A stretch of DNA of 64,000 nt from Verrucomicrobiales bacterium (GTDB taxonomy: Bacteria > Verrucomicrobiota > Verrucomicrobiia > Limisphaerales > J093). Each line of letters opens with the position of its first letter. Positions within the stretch are counted from its first letter, which is position 1. The DNA lies in assembly GCA_024233215.1 (NCBI GenBank), contig JACKPW010000015.1, positions 84,253-148,252 of the forward strand, in the 5' to 3' direction. Under the pieces are notes generated by a model, which was not told where the DNA came from, searched no databases, and was given only the letters and a program-made list of their open reading frames with translations. The position numbers and the translations under genes were made by a program. This document shows, piece by piece, positions 2 to 54,456 of this stretch.

Positions 2-970
2 GGTCCGGCCGGCGGCGCCTTGGCGAGCACGCCGATCTCCATTGGCAACGGCAGTTGGGATGTGAAGGCGGTGGTCGGCGAAGCCACGGTGCACCCGGAT
101 GGTTCCGCCTGGTTCCGCGTCCCGGCCCGCACGCCGCTTTACCTCCAGGCCATCGATGAGCAGGGGCACGCCATCCAGACGATGCGAAGCTGGACCACCC
201 TGCAGCCGGGCGAAACGCAGTCGTGCGTGGGCTGTCACGAGGAGAAGAACAGCTCGCCCCCCGCCACCCTGCCGAAAGTCACGGCCGCCCAAGTCGCGGG
301 AGTGCAGAGCCTGGTGCCGTTTTCCGGCCCGGCGCGCGGATTCAGCTTTGCCGCCGAGGTGCAGCCCATCCTCGACCGGCACTGCGTCCGATGTCACCGC
401 GACCGCATTGCCCTGGCGGATCGTCTGGGGCTGGATCCGCGGAGTTTCGCCGAACGTGCGGGGGTGTCGATGCAGACTCTGAATCCGGTGATCCCGGTGG
501 CGGGCGGCGACGAGGCCAGGGTGTCCTTCAGCCTGCTCGGCGAAGGGATTGTGGACGCGAAGGCCGGTCGCCGGTGGAGCGATGCCTATCTGGCGCTGAC
601 CTCGGCGTCCCTGGATGATCTTCCCTGGGATCGGGCGGTCTGGATGGGGGACTACGAATCACCCCTGGTCAATTGGATTGGGGCGCAATCGGTGCCGACC
701 CTCCTGCCGTTGCCGCTGGCTGGATCCGCTCGGAGCGGTCTGATGAAGCTGCTTCGGGAACGCCACGAGGGAGTGCAGGTTTCCCGCGCGGAGTACGAGA
801 CCATCGCCTGTTGGATCGATCTGCTGGTGCCTTACTGCGGGGATTACACGGAGGCAAACACGTGGACCGAGGCACAGGTGCGGAAATACGAACACTACCT
901 CGCCAAACGGCGGCGGATGGAAGCGATGGAGGAGACGAACAGGGCGGGAGACCGCTCCCCGGAATCCTGA
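2..970 (+). CDS. C-terminal part of a secreted haem-c-motif protein (HzsA-related / PVC-type cytochrome-motif family); N-terminus lies outside the window
   Basis: The frame is open from base 2, with no stop before the TTG at 20 used by the ORF track. Stop is TGA at 968-970. Two CxxCH motifs are present (SCVGCHE, HCVRCHR). The family name is from memory of similar PVC proteins and is not verified. Confidence 0.6.
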   Translation, partial: GPAGGALASTPISIGNGSWDVKAVVGEATVHPDGSAWFRVPARTPLYLQAIDEQGHAIQTMRSWTTLQPGETQSCVGCHEEKNSSPPATLPKVTAAQVAGVQSLVPFSGPARGFSFAAEVQPILDRHCVRCHRDRIALADRLGLDPRSFAERAGVSMQTLNPVIPVAGGDEARVSFSLLGEGIVDAKAGRRWSDAYLALTSASLDDLPWDRAVWMGDYESPLVNWIGAQSVPTLLPLPLAGSARSGLMKLLRERHEGVQVSRAEYETIACWIDLLVPYCGDYTEANTWTEAQVRKYEHYLAKRRRMEAMEETNRAGDRSPES

Positions 971-1058
971 GCCATAACGATTCAAGTCTCTACAGAAGGA
1001 AACGAAGAGAACGAAGCGAGGCAGGCCCTCGGGAGATCATTGTTCTTCCGATTGACAC
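970..1058 (+). repeat. Miniature member (H) of the decamer-armed hairpin element family
   Basis: Begins with the box AGCCATAACGATT, whose first A is the last base of the upstream TGA stop. The arm is GGAAACGAAGAGAACGAAGCGAGG, the short core is CAGGCCCTCGGGAG, and the imperfect return arm is ATCATTGTTCTTCCGATTGAC. The same box occurs at 31986 and 34951. Confidence 0.45.
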
Positions 1059-20564: not shown

Positions 20565-20765
20565 GAAAACCACAGATGAACGACGATGAACCGTTCAGTC
20601 TGGAAACCGCAGATGAACGCGGATGAACGCAGATAAGTCCTTCGGCCTGAGCCCGCGATGCCCGCCGGATGTCTTCACCCAATGGGTGAACCGGGACGAC
20701 TGCGGAAGTCCTTGGGAATCTGTGTCCATCTGTGTCTATCTGCGGTTCAACTGCTCTTTCCAGGT
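20565..20765 (+). repeat. Hairpin element A (GCAGATGAAC-type arms) with an extra half left arm
   Basis: The left arm is 20607-20634 (CCGCAGATGAACGCGGATGAACGCAGAT) and the right arm is 20718-20745 (ATCTGTGTCCATCTGTGTCTATCTGCGG). By hand, the 28 pairs are 22 Watson-Crick, 4 G.U and 2 A.C. A duplicated half arm lies at 20565-20598. The 3' box GGTTCAACTGC is at 20744-20754. The element ends at the cotH stop codon (20766-20768). Confidence 0.8.
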
Positions 20766-23700
20766 TCAGTGAATGGACGGGGTGACCACCCGGTAGTACC
20801 GGGCTCCTTCCGTCGGTGGCGCTTCATCCACGATCTCCGCGGTGCCGTCGAAGCGTCCGGGCAGGAAGTCAGACAGTTTCGACCACCCATTCACACCGAG
20901 GTCGTCCGAGAACAACACCGTGTACTCCCGGCCGGCGATGGCGGGGAAGGTCAGCCGCAATCCGCCGGACGCTTCGGTGAAGCCGGCGATGGTGATGGCC
21001 AGGGTGCTGGCCGGATCCCGGGGATCGGTGCCCGCCTCGTATTCCTCGCGATTGCTCAAGCCGTCGTCGTCGTAGTCCAATCCGGCATCCGCCGGGTCGA
21101 ACGCGTCCATGCCGTGGGCCTGTTCCCAGTCGTTCGGGATGCCGTCGTTGTCGGAGTCGGCCTCGCCGCCGGGTTGAAAGACGCCGGGCGAAGGGTCTTC
21201 CGCGAGCCAGGCCAGCGGGTCGTTGCCGACGCGGTCCAGGGTCTGTCGCGCCAGGCTCTTGCCAAGGCCGTCCGCCTCCGCGGGCCAGGGCGTGGCATCG
21301 GCGAAGATGACCTCGTCGAGGGGAACCCAGGAGAGGACTTCTCCGGGGGTGTCGGAGGCCTGGGGTTGTTCCAATGTCAGTCGTCCGGTGCGGTTCGACA
21401 GCCGCCCGCCGTAGGGGCCGAGCAGGAGCGGAGAGGCGCTTTCGAGACCGTAGGCGGCGAGGAAGGCGTCACGGGCGGGGAGGTCGGCGGGATCGAAGTT
21501 CACCAGCAGGGCCACGGCTTGGGCGCCGAGGGTGAAGTCGGCCGGGAATGCGAACGAAACATCGCCACTGACACGCCAGGTGCCGTTGGTGTTCCAGAAG
21601 TCGGTGGCCTCGGTGGCGCCGGTGATTTCGAGGTATTCGAGCGCGGGATCTTCCTCCGGCGGCGTGCCGGTTTCCAGCGGGTGATACATGACCTCGGTGA
21701 AGCGCGGGGCATCGGGAAGGGCGGCATTGGCCGCATCGCGGGTACGGGGGGTCAGCGGCGCCCACCAGTGGCCGTAGGGAGGAACGCGGCCGAAGGACCA
21801 GCCGTTGGCTTCGGCGGGGAATTCGACGGCGTCCACCACGCGGTCCGTGCCGTCTCCGGGGAGGACGGAGAGGAACACCCGTTCACCATCCTTGCTCAAG
21901 CCGAAGCCCTGGTTCGTGGGGTTGTGGAAGCCGGTTACCTCATCGAACGAGATCAAGCCGAACGGCGGAAAGGACGTGCCCGCCGGGATCATCCATTTCC
22001 GAAGATCGGAGGGGCTGTCGCTGAGGAACCAGTTGGGGCCGAGGGTGATCGGATTGATGCTCGGATTGAGGAGTTCGATCCAATCGTTGGAATCGAGTTC
22101 ACTCAGGTAGTCCGTGTGGGCGGCGATCTCGTTGAGCAACAGGAGTGGTTGGGGTTCGGCGTAGAGCCATCCGGGCGATCCGCCGATGAAGTCGCTGGCC
22201 CGCCAGTTGCCGCCGTAGTCGAGCGCCCCTTCCGGAGCGGCCTCGTCCGTGCCCACGCGAGGCACGAGCGAATGTCCCGCGCCGTCGGCGGCAACCGGCC
22301 AGCCCCGGCCGTCGTTGTAGGCGAAAGAGAAGATGACGTCCCCGTCGGGGGCGGTCCGCAGGGTGACAGTTTCCCCGCCATCACTGAAGTTGCCGTCATA
22401 GGGCCCGAACAGCAGAAGCTCCTCCGGTAGGTTGTAGTGGGCCCGGAAGGCGGCGATCTCCGTGGCGCCCGCAGCCTTCACGACCAGAGCGCATTGGCCG
22501 CGCGGGAGCGTGGAACCGGTGGGGAAGGTGAAGTCGATCCCGTCGGTGAAGGCGACGCCGCCGAGGTCCAGCGCCGTGTCCAGGTTGCGGTTGCGGAGTT
22601 CGATGAAGTCGAACGCGCTGCTGTCCGGGGCGTGGTACATCAGCTCCGTGACCGTGAGGTTGTCCAGCAGGGCGGCGGTGTTGTCCGGCGCTCCCGCGAT
22701 GAACTCCAAAGGTGCGGACCAATGGCTGGCACGGCCGGTCTGATCGACATACTGCACGCGGGCGCGGTAGACATGGCCGACCTCGAGCGTGCCGGCGGGA
22801 ACGGTGATGGTGGAGTCCGAAGTGGTGATCGGGCCGCTTTCCCACACCGCCTGGATCTCGTATTTCCACGGCTTGGAGGAGGCCCAACCGGGCTGGTCGG
22901 GCGGGGTGATTTCCCCCACGCGCCACTGGATGACGCCGAAAGGGTTGGTGCCGGCGTAGGGAGTGACCTGGAGTTCGAGGCGATTGACCGGGAAACCCGC
23001 CGCGCCCGCGTAGCTCAGGGTGGGGGTCGACGGAATCGCCGGATCGTTGGCAATCGTGTCCAGCGGCGCGGCCTGGGCGGAGGGGTTTGAGGCGCGGAAA
23101 CTCACATAGTCCTTCATCAACTGGACGCAGCCGGCGAAGTCCTTGGTGGCCCACGGTTCACGCGGCCACTGGTAGAAGCGACCCTGGCCGGCCTTGTTCA
23201 GGCTGCTCGAGTAGCGGGAGTCCGTCATCTTGGGGTTGTAGTCCCACTGCGCGCGGTCGGCGTCGAGCAGGGTGGGACCGGTGGCGGGACCCTGGAGCCG
23301 GTCGGCGTATTCGTCGATGAGCCGCCAGGCTTCGTCCTCGTTCCACAGCAGGTCACGGACTTCGCGCACCCGGTTGCGGTAGGCGATGGCGATGTTGGGA
23401 TAGGTCGAGGGCCGGTCGAGCAGGCGGCTCTTGATGTTGTCCACCCCGCCGCAGCCCGAGCTGTACATGTTCTCGGCCCACGTGAGATCCAGGTCCCAGG
23501 GAGTGACCGTGACCCGACCGTCAAGCGGGTTGAAGTAGTAGAAGTAGTTCTTGTTGAAACAGATGTCGTAGTGGTGGATGCCTTGGACAATCGCTTGGTA
23601 ACTCAGGTAGGCCGGCACGTTGAGGTTCGCAGACCACCAGGTCTCGGTGGGGCCGTTGTAGTCGTTCAGGAAGGTGTTGAGGTCGGACTTGTTGGTCGGA

Positions 23701-25957: not shown

Positions 25958-26060
25958 CGCCTGAAAACCAAAAACCACCTGTGCGGTCGCGAGCACGGCT
26001 GCGGACCTTGGATTTTCGATCTCCCCTTCGTCATCGTAATCCTCATCGTAATCTTTTGGA
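25958..26060 (-). repeat. Short member (G) of the hairpin family with a 12-nt arm period
   Basis: On the minus strand it reads AAAAGATTACGATGAGGATTACGATGACGAAGGGGAG ... CACAGGTGGTTTTTGGTTTTCAGGCG. It shows the same pattern of tandem units followed by GGGGAG as the other copies. The return arm is weak. Confidence 0.4.
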
Positions 26061-31985: not shown

Positions 31986-32166
31986 AGCCATAACGACTCG
32001 GCAGGAACCACGAATCAACACGAATCAACACGAATGGGAGGGCACTGCGACGGCAGGCAGGGTTCGCCCTCCGTCACTACCGGGTGGCTCCCAGTCATCG
32101 GTCCTGCCGGCCCTGAAAACTGCAGTCTTATTCGTGTGGATTGGTGTCCATTCGCGGTTGGACTGC
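31986..32166 (+). repeat. Hairpin element B (ACGAATCAAC-type arms), the best-preserved copy
   Basis: The box AGCCATAACGACT is at 31986. The left arm is 32006-32035 (AACCACGAATCAACACGAATCAACACGAAT) and the right arm is 32130-32159 (ATTCGTGTGGATTGGTGTCCATTCGCGGTT), 25/30 complementary by hand. The central ACCGGGTGGC is at 32079-32088 and the 3' box GGTTGGACTGC at 32156-32166. Confidence 0.85.
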
Positions 32167-32305
32167 CTGTAGACGGCCTATTCTGGCTCTCGCGTCGTCC
32201 GCGGATTTGACGGGACGTCGTCATTGCCCCCTTACGGTTGAGGGTCCCGGCGTGGAGGGAGGGTAACCCGCAAATTGCTTTGCGCCGGGGGAGCTTTCTT
32301 TCACC

Positions 32306-34950: not shown

Positions 34951-35132
34951 AGCCGTAACGATTTAGTGGAGAACCACGAATCCACCCGAATCGACACGAA
35001 TGGGAGGGCATTCCGAGGGCCGCCAGGTCGCGGCTTCCGCCAGCGCCGGGTGGCCTCCACGCAGCGTTCCCACCGTTCTTGAGAACCGCGTTCTCACTCT
35101 CCTGCACTGCTGTCGGTTCGTGGTTGAACTGC
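34951..35132 (+). repeat. Hairpin element C (ACGAAT-type arms, degenerate right arm)
   Basis: The box AGCCGTAACGATT starts 11 nt after the mutS stop. The left arm is AACCACGAATCCACCCGAATCGACACGAATGGGAGGG. The central GCCGGGTGGC is at 35045-35054 and the 3' box GGTTGAACTGC at 35122-35132. Confidence 0.75.
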
Positions 35133-35155
35133 ATGGGAACGACTGAGCCTGGTAA

Positions 35156-35270
35156 GAGCAGTTGAACCGCAGATACACGCAGATAGACACGGATTTCCAA
35201 GGACTTGCCGAAACGCTCCTTCTCCCCGTTGGTGAGCGCATCCGACCACCGCTGAGGTCTCAGGTTGACC
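35156..35270 (-). repeat. Truncated hairpin element D (GCAGAT-type arm), inverted relative to C
   Basis: GCAGTTGAACCGCAGATACACGCAGATAGACACGGATTTCCAAGGACTT closely matches the reverse complement of the right arm and core start of element A. The second arm is missing. Confidence 0.65.
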
Positions 35271-36198: not shown

Positions 36199-36314
36199 TT
36201 GCTGCGCTGCTCCGGCAGCAATCACATCACTCACGCACCCGGGCCTCTTGGGTCCGGGTGCCGTCTTTTCGGGGCGTTCCGTTCTTCGGGCGGGTGCTTT
36301 CGCGTTCGCCGCAC

Positions 36315-36481
36315 AGCCTTCATTCCGGAAACCGCAGATCAACGCGGATCAACGCAGACAAGTCCTTCGGCCTGATCGCCCGATCTCCCATGGGTGTCTT
36401 CCCCACCGGGTGGCACGGGATGATTCAGTTGGTCTTCGGGGATGTGCGTCCATCCACGTTCCAACGGCTCTTTCGAGGTTC
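36315..36481 (+). repeat. Hairpin element E (GCAGATCAAC-type arms, degenerate right arm)
   Basis: The left arm is AAACCGCAGATCAACGCGGATCAACGCAGACAAGTCC. The core starts TTCGGCCTGA as in A. The central ACCGGGTGGC is at 36405-36414, and the right end GGCTCTTTCGAGGTTC resembles A's CTGCTCTTTCCAGGTTC. Confidence 0.75.
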
Positions 36482-36571
36482 ATGCGATACCCGGACACCG
36501 GAGGTTGAGTTGTGACTCGTGGAACTCGTCCCTCCGACCGGTCCTACGACGGGTCGATCGGTTGATCTCGG

Positions 36572-53521: not shown

Positions 53522-53745
53522 AGCCGTTGGTTGGAACTCCGTTTCTGTTTCTCCCGCAGAGGCGCTGAGGCGCAGAGGGAACCCCATTCTCTACCCGGCG
53601 GTTTCTGGTCCGGTTTCCGGTTCGGTTGATCCTCTCTGAGTCGTCTTGGGGTCGGTCTTCGCTCCGACCGTCCTGTCGTTCCGGTTCCGGTCTTCCTCCG
53701 CGCCTCTGCGCCTCTGCGCGAGAAACGCCTTCATCCCATTCAGGT
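53522..53745 (+). repeat. Hairpin element F (GCAGAGGCGC-type arms)
   Basis: The start AGCCGTTGGTTGG is at 53522. The left arm is 53551-53580 (CTCCCGCAGAGGCGCTGAGGCGCAGAGGGA) and the right arm is 53693-53722 (TTCCTCCGCGCCTCTGCGCCTCTGCGCGAG), 26/30 complementary by hand. The core contains CTACCCGGCGGTTTC. Confidence 0.8.
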
Positions 53746-53750
53746 GCCAA

Positions 53751-54039
53751 CAAGTGATTATGCGAGTCTGGATATCACGCCAACCTGGGGTGCTATCCGA
53801 TAAAGCACATTCCCGTGGGCTGGCTTCATTGTTTGCTCGTTGGCTTGGACGCTACTGCAAGTCCGTGGGGCAAAGCAAGATGTTGCGGCGGGCTTGGGTT
53901 GTCCGGGGCGCGTTCCGAGTTTCCTGCCACCGGCTTCCGCATCGCGAGGCGATGCCAGCCATTAGCCGGGGGTTGGGTCCGAGTAGGCTCGGGCCCCACC
54001 CCCGGTGGGCACCGGAACAGGCTTCGCACCCTGGAGGGG
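53751..54039 (+). repeat. Tandem element, copy 1 (about 289 nt; candidate structured RNA or non-autonomous repeat)
   Basis: Both copies start with CAAGTGATTA, exactly 420 bp apart. From TGCTATCCGA onward the copies are about 90-95% identical by eye. Three single-base indels between the copies break every reading frame. Confidence 0.8.
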
Positions 54040-54170
54040 CCATGATGCCGAAATCGAACCGAGCCATGATCCGCATTGCGGTAACCCGCCAACACGGTAG
54101 GTCCACAAGGGGAGGAACGCCGCGCGGACTATTTGAGGGATGTCGCGCGCTCAACGGCCATGCTGTCCAC

Positions 54171-54456
54171 CAAGTGATTACATGAGTCAGAATATCGCTC
54201 CCACGTGGAGTGCTATCCGACAAGGCTCACTCCCGTGGGCTGGCTTCACTGTGTGCTCGTTGATTTGGACGCTACTGCAAGTCCGTGCGGCAAAGCAAGA
54301 TGTTGCGGCGGGCTTGGGTTGTCCGGGCGCGTTCCGAGTTTCCTGCCACTGGCTTCCGTATCGCGAGGCGATGCCAGCTATTAGCCGGGGTTGGGTCCGA
54401 GTAGGCTCGGGCCTTACCCCGGTGGGCACCGGAACAGGCTTCGCACCCCGGAGGGG
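54171..54456 (+). repeat. Tandem element, copy 2 (about 286 nt)
   Basis: See copy 1. This copy ends in the hairpin GCACCCC-gga-GGGGTGC. An inverted copy of its internal motif GCCAGCYATTAGCCGGGG lies at 54558-54575, 12 nt from the relE/parE stop. Confidence 0.8.

Follow-up and report, generated by a model that had tools for sequence, protein, structure and literature searches.

Hairpin Elements of the 64-kb Window

The window, meaning the whole stretch of 64,000 nucleotides (64 kb) that was analysed, contains repeated elements of 143-200 nt, 5-6 copies in 64 kb, together with solo arms and remnants. The features are given below by coordinates and strand.

970..1058, + strand: H, 5′ box AGCCATAACGATT (970-982), then a decayed arm-like stretch AACGAAGAGAACGAAGCGAGG
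20568..20597, + strand: A′, partial left arm of class 1 (AACCACAGATGAACGACGATGAAC...), standing alone immediately 5′ of A
20594..20768, + strand: A, complete ORF-less class-1 hairpin element of the GCAGAT/GCGGAT type, assigned by skeleton, fold and homology
26030..26053, + strand: G, solo tandem repeat GTCATCGTAATCCTCATCGTAATC without a partner arm
31986..32186, + strand: B, complete ORF-less class-1 hairpin element of the ACGAAT type
34951..35135, + strand: C, class-1 element of the ACGAAT type, left arm intact, right arm decayed
35142..35270, + strand: D, truncated class-1 element of the GCAGAT type, one arm and core
36315..36485, + strand: E, class-1 element of the GCAGAT/GCGGAT type
53547..53726, + strand: F, hairpin with 8-nt units GCGCAGAG, representing a second arm class

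The arms of A–E match the skeleton AACCNCNNATNNACNCNNATNNACNCNNA, i.e. AACC(NCNNATNNAC)2NCNNA, with seven exact matches found and 0.01 expected in 64 kb on both strands. Relaxed skeleton scans of the window added just the decayed right arm of E and the solo arm A′, which deviates from the skeleton at 3 of 16 positions and was picked up by the relaxed scan and by the repeat scan (direct-repeat family D4). Element A occupies the gap between two minus-strand genes, and both of its arms (20605-20634 and 20718-20747) are exact to the skeleton. Element B, placed between an ArsR-like gene and mutS, has arms at 32006-32035 and 32130-32159, a 5′ box at 31986-31998 and a 3′ box at 32156-32166. The left arm of C (34972-35001) is intact and the right arm (approximately 35097-35125) is decayed, the boxes lying at 34951-34963 and 35122-35132. 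Elements C and D are arranged tail-to-tail; D retains a single arm (35165-35194), exact to the skeleton and accompanied by the outer box GCAGTTGAACC, the other arm being missing, and its core is homologous to the right end of A (89% identity over 65 nt to the reverse complement of A, 20706-20770). In E, the left arm (36330-36359) is intact, and the right arm (36433-36461) is decayed, with five mismatches. Whole-element homology was found between A and E (83% over 86 nt) and between B and C (71% over 182 nt), and no alignment was obtained between H and any other element of the 64-kb window; H probably derives from a B/C-type copy, of whose left half it is a remnant. Elements C, D, E, H and A′ appear to be decaying copies, which would then make up the majority of the copies in the window.

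A preceding reading of the same DNA, made from the sequence only, had described eight copies of one hairpin family with arms of three tandem 10-nt units. Its hand counts of arm pairing were correct (25/30 in B, 80% over 30 nt in A and 91% over 32 nt in F), and two arms of three such units were confirmed for A and B. The location in intergenic gaps was borne out as well, since every copy is intergenic and C starts 11 nt past the mutS stop codon. Both terminal boxes stood up to counting: the 5′ box AGCCRTAACGAYT, present in B, C and H, has three exact matches with none expected, and four of the five exact matches of the 3′ box GGTTSRACTGC in the window are at element ends. The core motif ACCGGGTGGC, put forward as a family feature, is marginal (three matches against 0.48 expected, one of the three unrelated), and the arms differ less between copies than was claimed, 16 of the 29 arm positions being invariant across the window copies. 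As to the family itself, A–E do share the skeleton, but F and G have other arm types and H is a decayed remnant; the repeats of the window represent at least three arm classes plus remnants, not one family of eight.

The sequence-only reading had also held each copy to be self-complementary. RNA folds compared with dinucleotide shuffles gave z-scores of -4.55 for A (-5.80 for the AACC..GGTT segment alone), -2.26 for B, -2.17 for C, +0.82 for E, +1.51 for D, -0.38 for H, -5.44 for F and +0.11 / +0.61 for G; this part of the description holds for A, B and F, which fold significantly better than shuffles, but not for C, D, E, G and H, which are at the background level. A role as an intrinsic terminator, suggested at the same time, is rejected: neither a T-run nor a terminator-like site was found at any element of the window, and the stem is followed by A-rich sequence.

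The arms also account for recurrent spurious ORFs in the window (e.g., ICVHLC..., IRVDWC...), and the peptides quoted in the sequence-only reading are indeed arm translations.

Homology among the window copies extends 14-25 nt past the arms, into the 5′ and 3′ boxes, which is not predicted by simple arm-bounded transposition. By its MutS, the window falls within Verrucomicrobiota, order Pedosphaerales. The closest MutS relatives of the window are found in loci L001 (92% identical, the best) and L002 (78%); neither locus contains any arm, around mutS or elsewhere, and the mutS spacers are not alignable with those of the window. The absence of B, C and D at mutS in the closest relatives suggests that these copies are lineage-specific.

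The two remaining repeats belong to other arm types. The arms of F (53547-53578 and 53695-53726) enclose a loop of 116 nt, in which nothing is alignable with the other window elements; arms with GCGCAGAG units were also found in loci L096, L090, L120, L026 and L105. Repeat G, which likewise does not align with other elements of the window, resembles a solo copy of the (TAATCN)n arms that bracket cassettes carrying PF05635 genes (compared loci: L007, L203, L204 and L214). These genes encode four-helix-bundle proteins of the “23S rRNA IVS protein” family, where IVS stands for intervening sequence; the arms on either side of them consist of 6-nt units, (TAATCN)n/(GATTAN)n. The cassettes are located at gmk/coaBC or between other gene pairs, with the next host ATG immediately after the arm; a search with the PF05635 protein returned mostly one conserved gmk/coaBC site, and the loci collected with the class-1 skeleton and the GxxExxY protein described below had one such gene. 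F and G would represent sister arm classes sharing the general design of class 1.

Distribution of the Class-1 Arms

A skeleton scan of 185,579 species genomes yielded at least 120 loci, the phylum labels of which depend on MAG binning. The class-1 arm opens with AACC and continues with three phased 10-bp units (R-C-N-R-A-T-N-N-A-C), and practically every match listed from these loci had true arms of the form AACC + (R C N R A T N N A C)x2 + RCNRAT. The taxa among the matches listed include Verrucomicrobiota, Planctomycetota, Acidobacteriota, Gamma- and Betaproteobacteria, Cyanobacteria, Chloroflexota, Binatia, Kiritimatiellia and archaea (Methanoperedens, Methanosarcinales). Also among the matches listed, 106 of 183 arms are paired with an inverted one, the resulting elements being mostly 65-225 nt long. 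No conserved sequence was found inside the loops of these loci, which are unrelated between genomes. The neighbours, represented by 402 ORFs, are ordinary housekeeping genes, and the only recurrent family among them is GxxExxY.

The GxxExxY Gene and the Full-Length Cassette

The few longer elements (430-615 nt; L033, L076 and L097) hold one ORF, assigned to TIGR04256 “GxxExxY” / PF13366 PDDEXK_3. The GxxExxY proteins comprise 115-136 residues and belong to the PD-(D/E)xK nuclease superfamily; full-length cassettes are about 430-470 bp long and contain this single gene. In the literature (PMC3424549), PDDEXK_3 appears among the families without an assigned function, and its clades mix bacteria and archaea. 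No solved structure of GxxExxY was found, and an AlphaFold model, built from sequences that were all ≥90% identical, reached a pLDDT of 42.7. We know of no activity reported for GxxExxY.

The association was also approached from the protein side, using an alignment of four GxxExxY proteins that brought up 80 metagenome loci on the basis of protein similarity only. For the 71 GxxExxY genes with sufficient flank, where the upstream arm was sought within 200 nt, an upstream arm was found in 64 cases, an inverted downstream arm in 67 and both in 62, and almost none of the arms were wrongly oriented. In 41 of 52 elements, the left arm itself contains an in-frame ATG, made up of the invariant AT and the G of unit 2, 3 or 1, and gene callers start the 136-residue GxxExxY product at this arm ATG; the stop codon is placed 3-13 nt ahead of the right arm. 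The cassettes are mostly sense-oriented and occupy very short operon spacers, including sufB/sufC and leuA/valS, and a co-directional gene ends ≤60 nt upstream in 33 of 44 cassette contexts.

As a side observation, the arms account for the odd N-termini of GxxExxY proteins.

The element has sharp bounds. In one subfamily found in at least eight unrelated contexts, the alignment runs from AACC to GGTT, with none beyond, and cassettes about 88-90% identical to each other are located at leuA/valS in one contig and at sufB/sufC in another. The family-wide flanks are TTT/AACC..GGTT/AAA (slashes mark the ends of the element), and pairing reaches just 1-2 nt outside the arms. More than 120 protein clusters formed at 90% identity share 90-96% identity with a single query; the corresponding MAGs are assigned to different phyla (labels Verrucomicrobiota and Limnocylindrales), a sign of recent spread. 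The GxxExxY family as a whole includes 7193 representatives at 50% identity, many of which are fragments, and it is rare on plasmids (7 of 72,556 records). Each of the hexamer types ACGAAT, ACGGAT/ACAGAT and GCGAAT goes with clusters of its own, so that type and protein clade run in parallel, and a distant GxxExxY gene of Treponema is flanked by an inverted repeat of a single unit, CACGGATTCG/CGAATCCGTG.

Signs of movement were sought in several ways. The target-site duplications proposed for checking by the sequence-only reading did not appear, with no excess of direct repeats at 122 element flanks. One orthologous site is occupied by intact 432-nt copies, by an internally deleted 318-nt copy, which illustrates decay at a fixed position, or by a different 137-nt hairpin, and in the comparison of L192 with L147 a hairpin stands in place of a simple right arm. 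Filled/empty comparison of orthologous loci gave size variants with no clean empty site, and none for any window copy. Related genomes share many of their cassette sites, which indicates that movement is rare. Remnants of the ORF are kept in just 2-3 of 77 miniatures and in none of the window copies; this near-absence argues that the miniatures are not recent deletion derivatives. No GxxExxY gene is present within the 64-kb window; this, like the lack of target-site duplications and of clean empty sites, counts against the mobile origin proposed below.

Concerted Identity of the Arm Units

The sequence-only reading had interpreted the agreement of left and right arms as compensatory evolution and, hence, as selection on RNA or ssDNA. 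Covariation was compared unit by unit over 130 distinct elements. At the variable unit positions 1/3/4, would-be pairing partners agree in 0.98/0.79/0.98 of cases, the expectation being 0.4-0.6; tandem units of one arm (L.u1-L.u2) agree in 0.92/0.65/0.96, and units that never pair (L.u1-R.u2) in 0.92/0.68/0.94. At position 7, no partner covariation was detected (0.58 against 0.58 expected in unit 1 and 0.39 against 0.41 in unit 2), and at position 8 there is a slight excess in unit 1 (0.54 against 0.42) and none in unit 2 (0.39 against 0.42). In the 51 ORF-oriented elements, G·U is not enriched on the sense strand (76, against 59 on the antisense strand), and transversions are equally frequent (82). 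All six units of one element share the hexamer type. The agreement of the arms is thus a concerted identity of six sites, not pairing compensation. Non-pairing units agree equally well, as would be expected of six protein-recognition sites or of copying among units and not of selection on an RNA helix, and these data, with the lack of a G·U strand bias, go against the compensatory interpretation. The data agree best with a different suggestion of the same reading, in which the ~10-nt period would offer a protein a repeated face.

Proposed Origin and Alternative Explanations

Elements A–E, and probably H, are considered with fair probability to be ORF-less miniature members of a cross-phylum hairpin-cassette family, comparable to MITEs, and the general notion of dispersed intergenic hairpin repeats of the REP/MITE kind, expressed in the sequence-only reading, is supported. 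The window copies are probably derivatives of an IS-like or IVS-like cassette mobilised in trans. The GxxExxY cassette would be a selfish mobile unit with the design of a minimal insertion sequence, in which the six phased sites may serve as DNA sites where its own protein, or another sequence-specific factor, synapses both ends. The gene-less copies of the window would be propagated or maintained in trans, like MITEs, and the GCAGAT type (A, D and E) and the ACGAAT type (B and C) might correspond to two partner lineages. When transcribed within an operon, the arms would fold to a ~30-bp stem, and RNase III may excise the insert at this stem, as in 23S rRNA intervening sequences, which would render the insertion harmless.

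A more far-reaching proposal can be offered tentatively. The GxxExxY cassette may be an autonomous mobile element of ~450 bp, with the PD-(D/E)xK protein as a transposase/resolvase acting on six phased 10-bp sites and moving the element without target duplication into operon spacers; the gene-less hairpins would be its MITEs, and 23S rRNA IVSs would be members of the same superfamily that landed in rRNA. To our knowledge, no autonomous IS described so far is as small as a full element of ~450 bp would be. Should the protein prove to move it, the element would define a new, exceptionally small class of prokaryotic transposons crossing phylum and domain boundaries; alternatively, GxxExxY could be cargo instead of the mobilising enzyme. 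The anatomy of the cassette, with its defined ends, arm-borne start codon, operon insertion and gene-less derivatives, gives both GxxExxY/PDDEXK_3 and the four-helix-bundle “23S rRNA IVS protein”, two very large families to which no function is assigned, a concrete, testable role, and the arms mark places of possible processing of operon transcripts. Searchable open-access literature, queried with arm strings and family names, contained no description of the element, the sequence matches being PCR primers, and no paper there tied PDDEXK_3 or the arms to a bounded element.

The main alternative places selection at the RNA level, with the arms being kept as a ~30-bp double-stranded stem for RNase III and the mobility machinery being unrelated or lost. 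RNase III would free the insert from host transcripts, which could leave a near-leaderless mRNA starting from the arm AUG. The sense orientation of the cassettes inside operons (e.g., at sufB/sufC, leuA/valS and gmk/coaBC), with the co-directional upstream gene in 33 of 44 contexts, and the start codon within the arm agree with this explanation, as does the predominance of purine-for-purine, wobble-type changes among the arm mismatches. A stem with ACAGAT repeats in the Coxiella IVS is cleaved by RNase III (PMC4990558). This explanation nevertheless appears rather unlikely, because G·U on the sense strand is not in excess over A·C (76 vs. 59), partner covariation is lacking at positions 7-8, unit 1 alone showing a slight excess at position 8, and never-pairing units agree equally well. 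The arms are also present in archaea, most of which are not known to have RNase III, and the sharp DNA-level ends in new contexts are left unexplained by RNA processing.

The sequence-only reading itself had favoured a structured ncRNA or ssDNA hairpin kept by compensatory changes, functioning as an sRNA, insulator or terminator. The significant folds of A, B and F and the fact that each arm pair has its own hexamer type are in line with it, but the covariation, being concerted over six units and not pairwise, largely refutes it, and the loops are unrelated between genomes. The Rfam check proposed by that reading gave no gathering-score match in the window, and scans by E-value gave chance-level matches only; with the folds of C, D, E, G and H at background and no T-run, such an origin is improbable.

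Even less probable is a relationship to attC-like sites of integron-type cassette arrays, of which the window copies would be orphan sites. Locus L069 (Nitrosomonas) does contain an array where toxin-antitoxin pairs and a GxxExxY gene alternate with hairpins, an IntI-like integrase gene adjoins an arm in L007, and the right ends GTTGGAC and GTTGAAC in the window match GTTRRRY (only in B and C). However, the arms are direct tandem units and have no inverted R/L boxes, the family-wide flanks do not fit, in 62 of 71 cases the hairpin encloses the gene, most copies stand alone amid housekeeping genes where no integrase recurs, and the arm in L007 is 3′ of the integrase gene, on the wrong side.

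Mobilisation of a REP/REPIN-like system by RAYT (HUH) or IS200/IS605 TnpA acting on ssDNA hairpins is hardly credible: the palindromic repeats are intergenic, present in many copies and without target-site duplication, and the associated gene is bracketed by inverted repeat copies, as RAYT genes are flanked by inverted copies of the REP repeat, but the GTAG-type REP head is absent, the arms are 30 nt of phased units and not a 20-40-nt palindrome, the bracketed gene is a PD-(D/E)xK gene, and the RAYT/IS200-like mobiliser that the sequence-only reading proposed to look for did not emerge, with no recurrent HUH gene among the 402 neighbouring ORFs.

Comparison with Known Systems

The window elements share several features with MITEs. 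They are short, gene-less and present in several dispersed intergenic copies; they have terminal inverted repeats, with A and B each having two exact arms that are 80-83% complementary over 30 nt; and their ends are common to a longer ORF-bearing element, 62 of the 71 GxxExxY genes being bracketed by arms with AACC..GGTT bounds. In MITEs with a parent IS, e.g., Correia/NEMIS of Neisseria, the ORF nearly fills the parent, as it does in the GxxExxY cassette, and co-transcribed Correia hairpins are substrates of RNase III. The elements described here differ from such systems in the lack of a target-site duplication and of a DDE transposase; the candidate enzyme is a PD-(D/E)xK protein of ~130 aa, and the ends consist of three phased 10-bp sites.

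A likeness to REP/REPIN-RAYT systems lies in the abundant intergenic palindromes, the small nuclease-type gene with inverted repeat flanks and the absence of target duplication. The fold, however, is PD-(D/E)xK and not HUH, the repeat anatomy is other, and GxxExxY is multi-copy and cross-phylum, whereas RAYT genes are single-copy and vertically inherited. With attC sites, the elements share imperfect hairpin sites with variable loops and, in one array (L069), the combination of hairpins with small selfish genes, but they do not have the R''-L''/L'-R' architecture, and no cassette array beside an integrase is present in the window.

The 23S rRNA IVSs, which carry an S23p/four-helix-bundle ORF and are found in Leptospira, Coxiella, Brucella and Xanthomonas, resemble the cassettes in being selfish inserts with ~28-30-bp stem-forming inverted repeats and a small ORF in the loop. 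In Coxiella, the IVS is bounded by terminal inverted repeats forming a 28-bp stem, carries an S23p ORF and is excised by RNase III; its 5′ end contains three tandem GACAGAT repeats (PMC4990558). This repeat includes the ACAGAT hexamer, as class-1 units do, and the PF05635 cassettes with tandem-unit arms in operon spacers provide a further point of likeness. At the same time, the units of class 1 are 10 nt long and those of the IVS 7 nt, the elements described here are located between protein genes, with no rRNA in the window, and the usual cargo of class 1 is GxxExxY and not S23p; the window copies have the stem without an ORF, while full-length relatives carry GxxExxY or PF05635. The impression, given by the sequence-only reading, of a common design despite differing units can be retained at the superfamily level, including F, the PF05635 cassettes and the likeness to the Coxiella IVS, but not as a single family; the sister arm classes and the Coxiella parallel indicate that it has a real basis. 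Over 25 years after rRNA IVSs were discovered, their origin and movement were still considered unclear (PMC4990558), and the anatomy of the hairpin cassettes is linked to both questions.

Locations and junctions of the elements

Small-ORF hairpin cassettes, in which a small ORF lies between inverted tandem-unit arms, are found in sense orientation within essential operons, namely between sufB and sufC (loci L227-L230 and L130), leuA and valS (L224-L226), and gmk and coaBC (L007 and L204-L223); the cassettes begin a few nucleotides past the upstream stop codon and finish a few nucleotides short of the downstream start codon. At one orthologous site, the alignment of L142, L151, L173 and L187 versus L164 indicates a AATGCCATGA(A)ATGG junction on both sides of the element, corresponding to the overlapping stop and start of the genes flanking it. 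The size of this duplication is about 12-20 nt, and other sites lack such a duplication.

In 41 of 52 elements (left arms, L123-L202), the start codon of the ORF encoding the PDDEXK_3 protein GxxExxY is composed of an arm unit's invariant AT plus a G; because the units are spaced by 10 nt, an ATG is available in each of the three reading frames across the three arm units.

In the window, a strong intrinsic-terminator-like hairpin (36235-36261, 12 pairs, followed by a T-rich tail, CGTCTTTTCG) is located just upstream of hairpin copy E; the gene preceding E is thus equipped with a terminator of its own, behind which E is situated.

Arrays, stacked arms and adjacent repeats

Features of the arrays and repeats:
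L069 1-3500, class-1 hairpin array, Nitrosomonas MAG JALRCN010000002
L007 1970-2095, several arm types stacked in one spacer, immediately 3' to the gene for an IntI-like integrase
Window 53747-54456, tandem duplication of 418 nt, copies 88-98% identical, immediately after hairpin copy F
L231 361-376 / 806-821, single-unit inverted repeat CACGGATTCG / CGAATCCGTG flanking a GxxExxY gene, Treponema saccharophilum pTS1

The Nitrosomonas array begins with four tandem class-1 hairpins separated by 16-nt spacers, and beyond these, hairpins alternate with two pairs, RelB/RelE-like and DUF4160/DUF2442-like, whose names come from inspection of their translations, and with a GxxExxY gene. Throughout the array, the left arms carry C-T-AAT and the right arms C-G-AAT, which gives one fixed mismatch in every unit.

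In the stacked L007 spacer, the unit AAGGCTG occurs four times in tandem, and there is also a CGCAAAG-type stretch together with a class-1 right arm. In L119 (6310-6420), a class-1 arm sits within the loop of a hairpin belonging to class 2 (CACAGAGG-type), an arrangement suggestive of nested insertion between arm classes.

Each copy of the duplication following F contains the GC-rich palindromic motif CATTAGCCGGGGGTTGGGTCCGAGTAGGCTCGGGCC...CCCCGGTGGGCACCGG, and in the closest relative the gap upstream of mutS (L001 9680-9880) is taken up by a repeat of related sequence, GATTAGCCGGGGGTC...CCCCCGGCTAATTTC; Rfam gives no match.

The GxxExxY gene of T. saccharophilum pTS1 is distant (32% identity), and the hexamer of the repeat flanking it is identical to that of the class-1 units.
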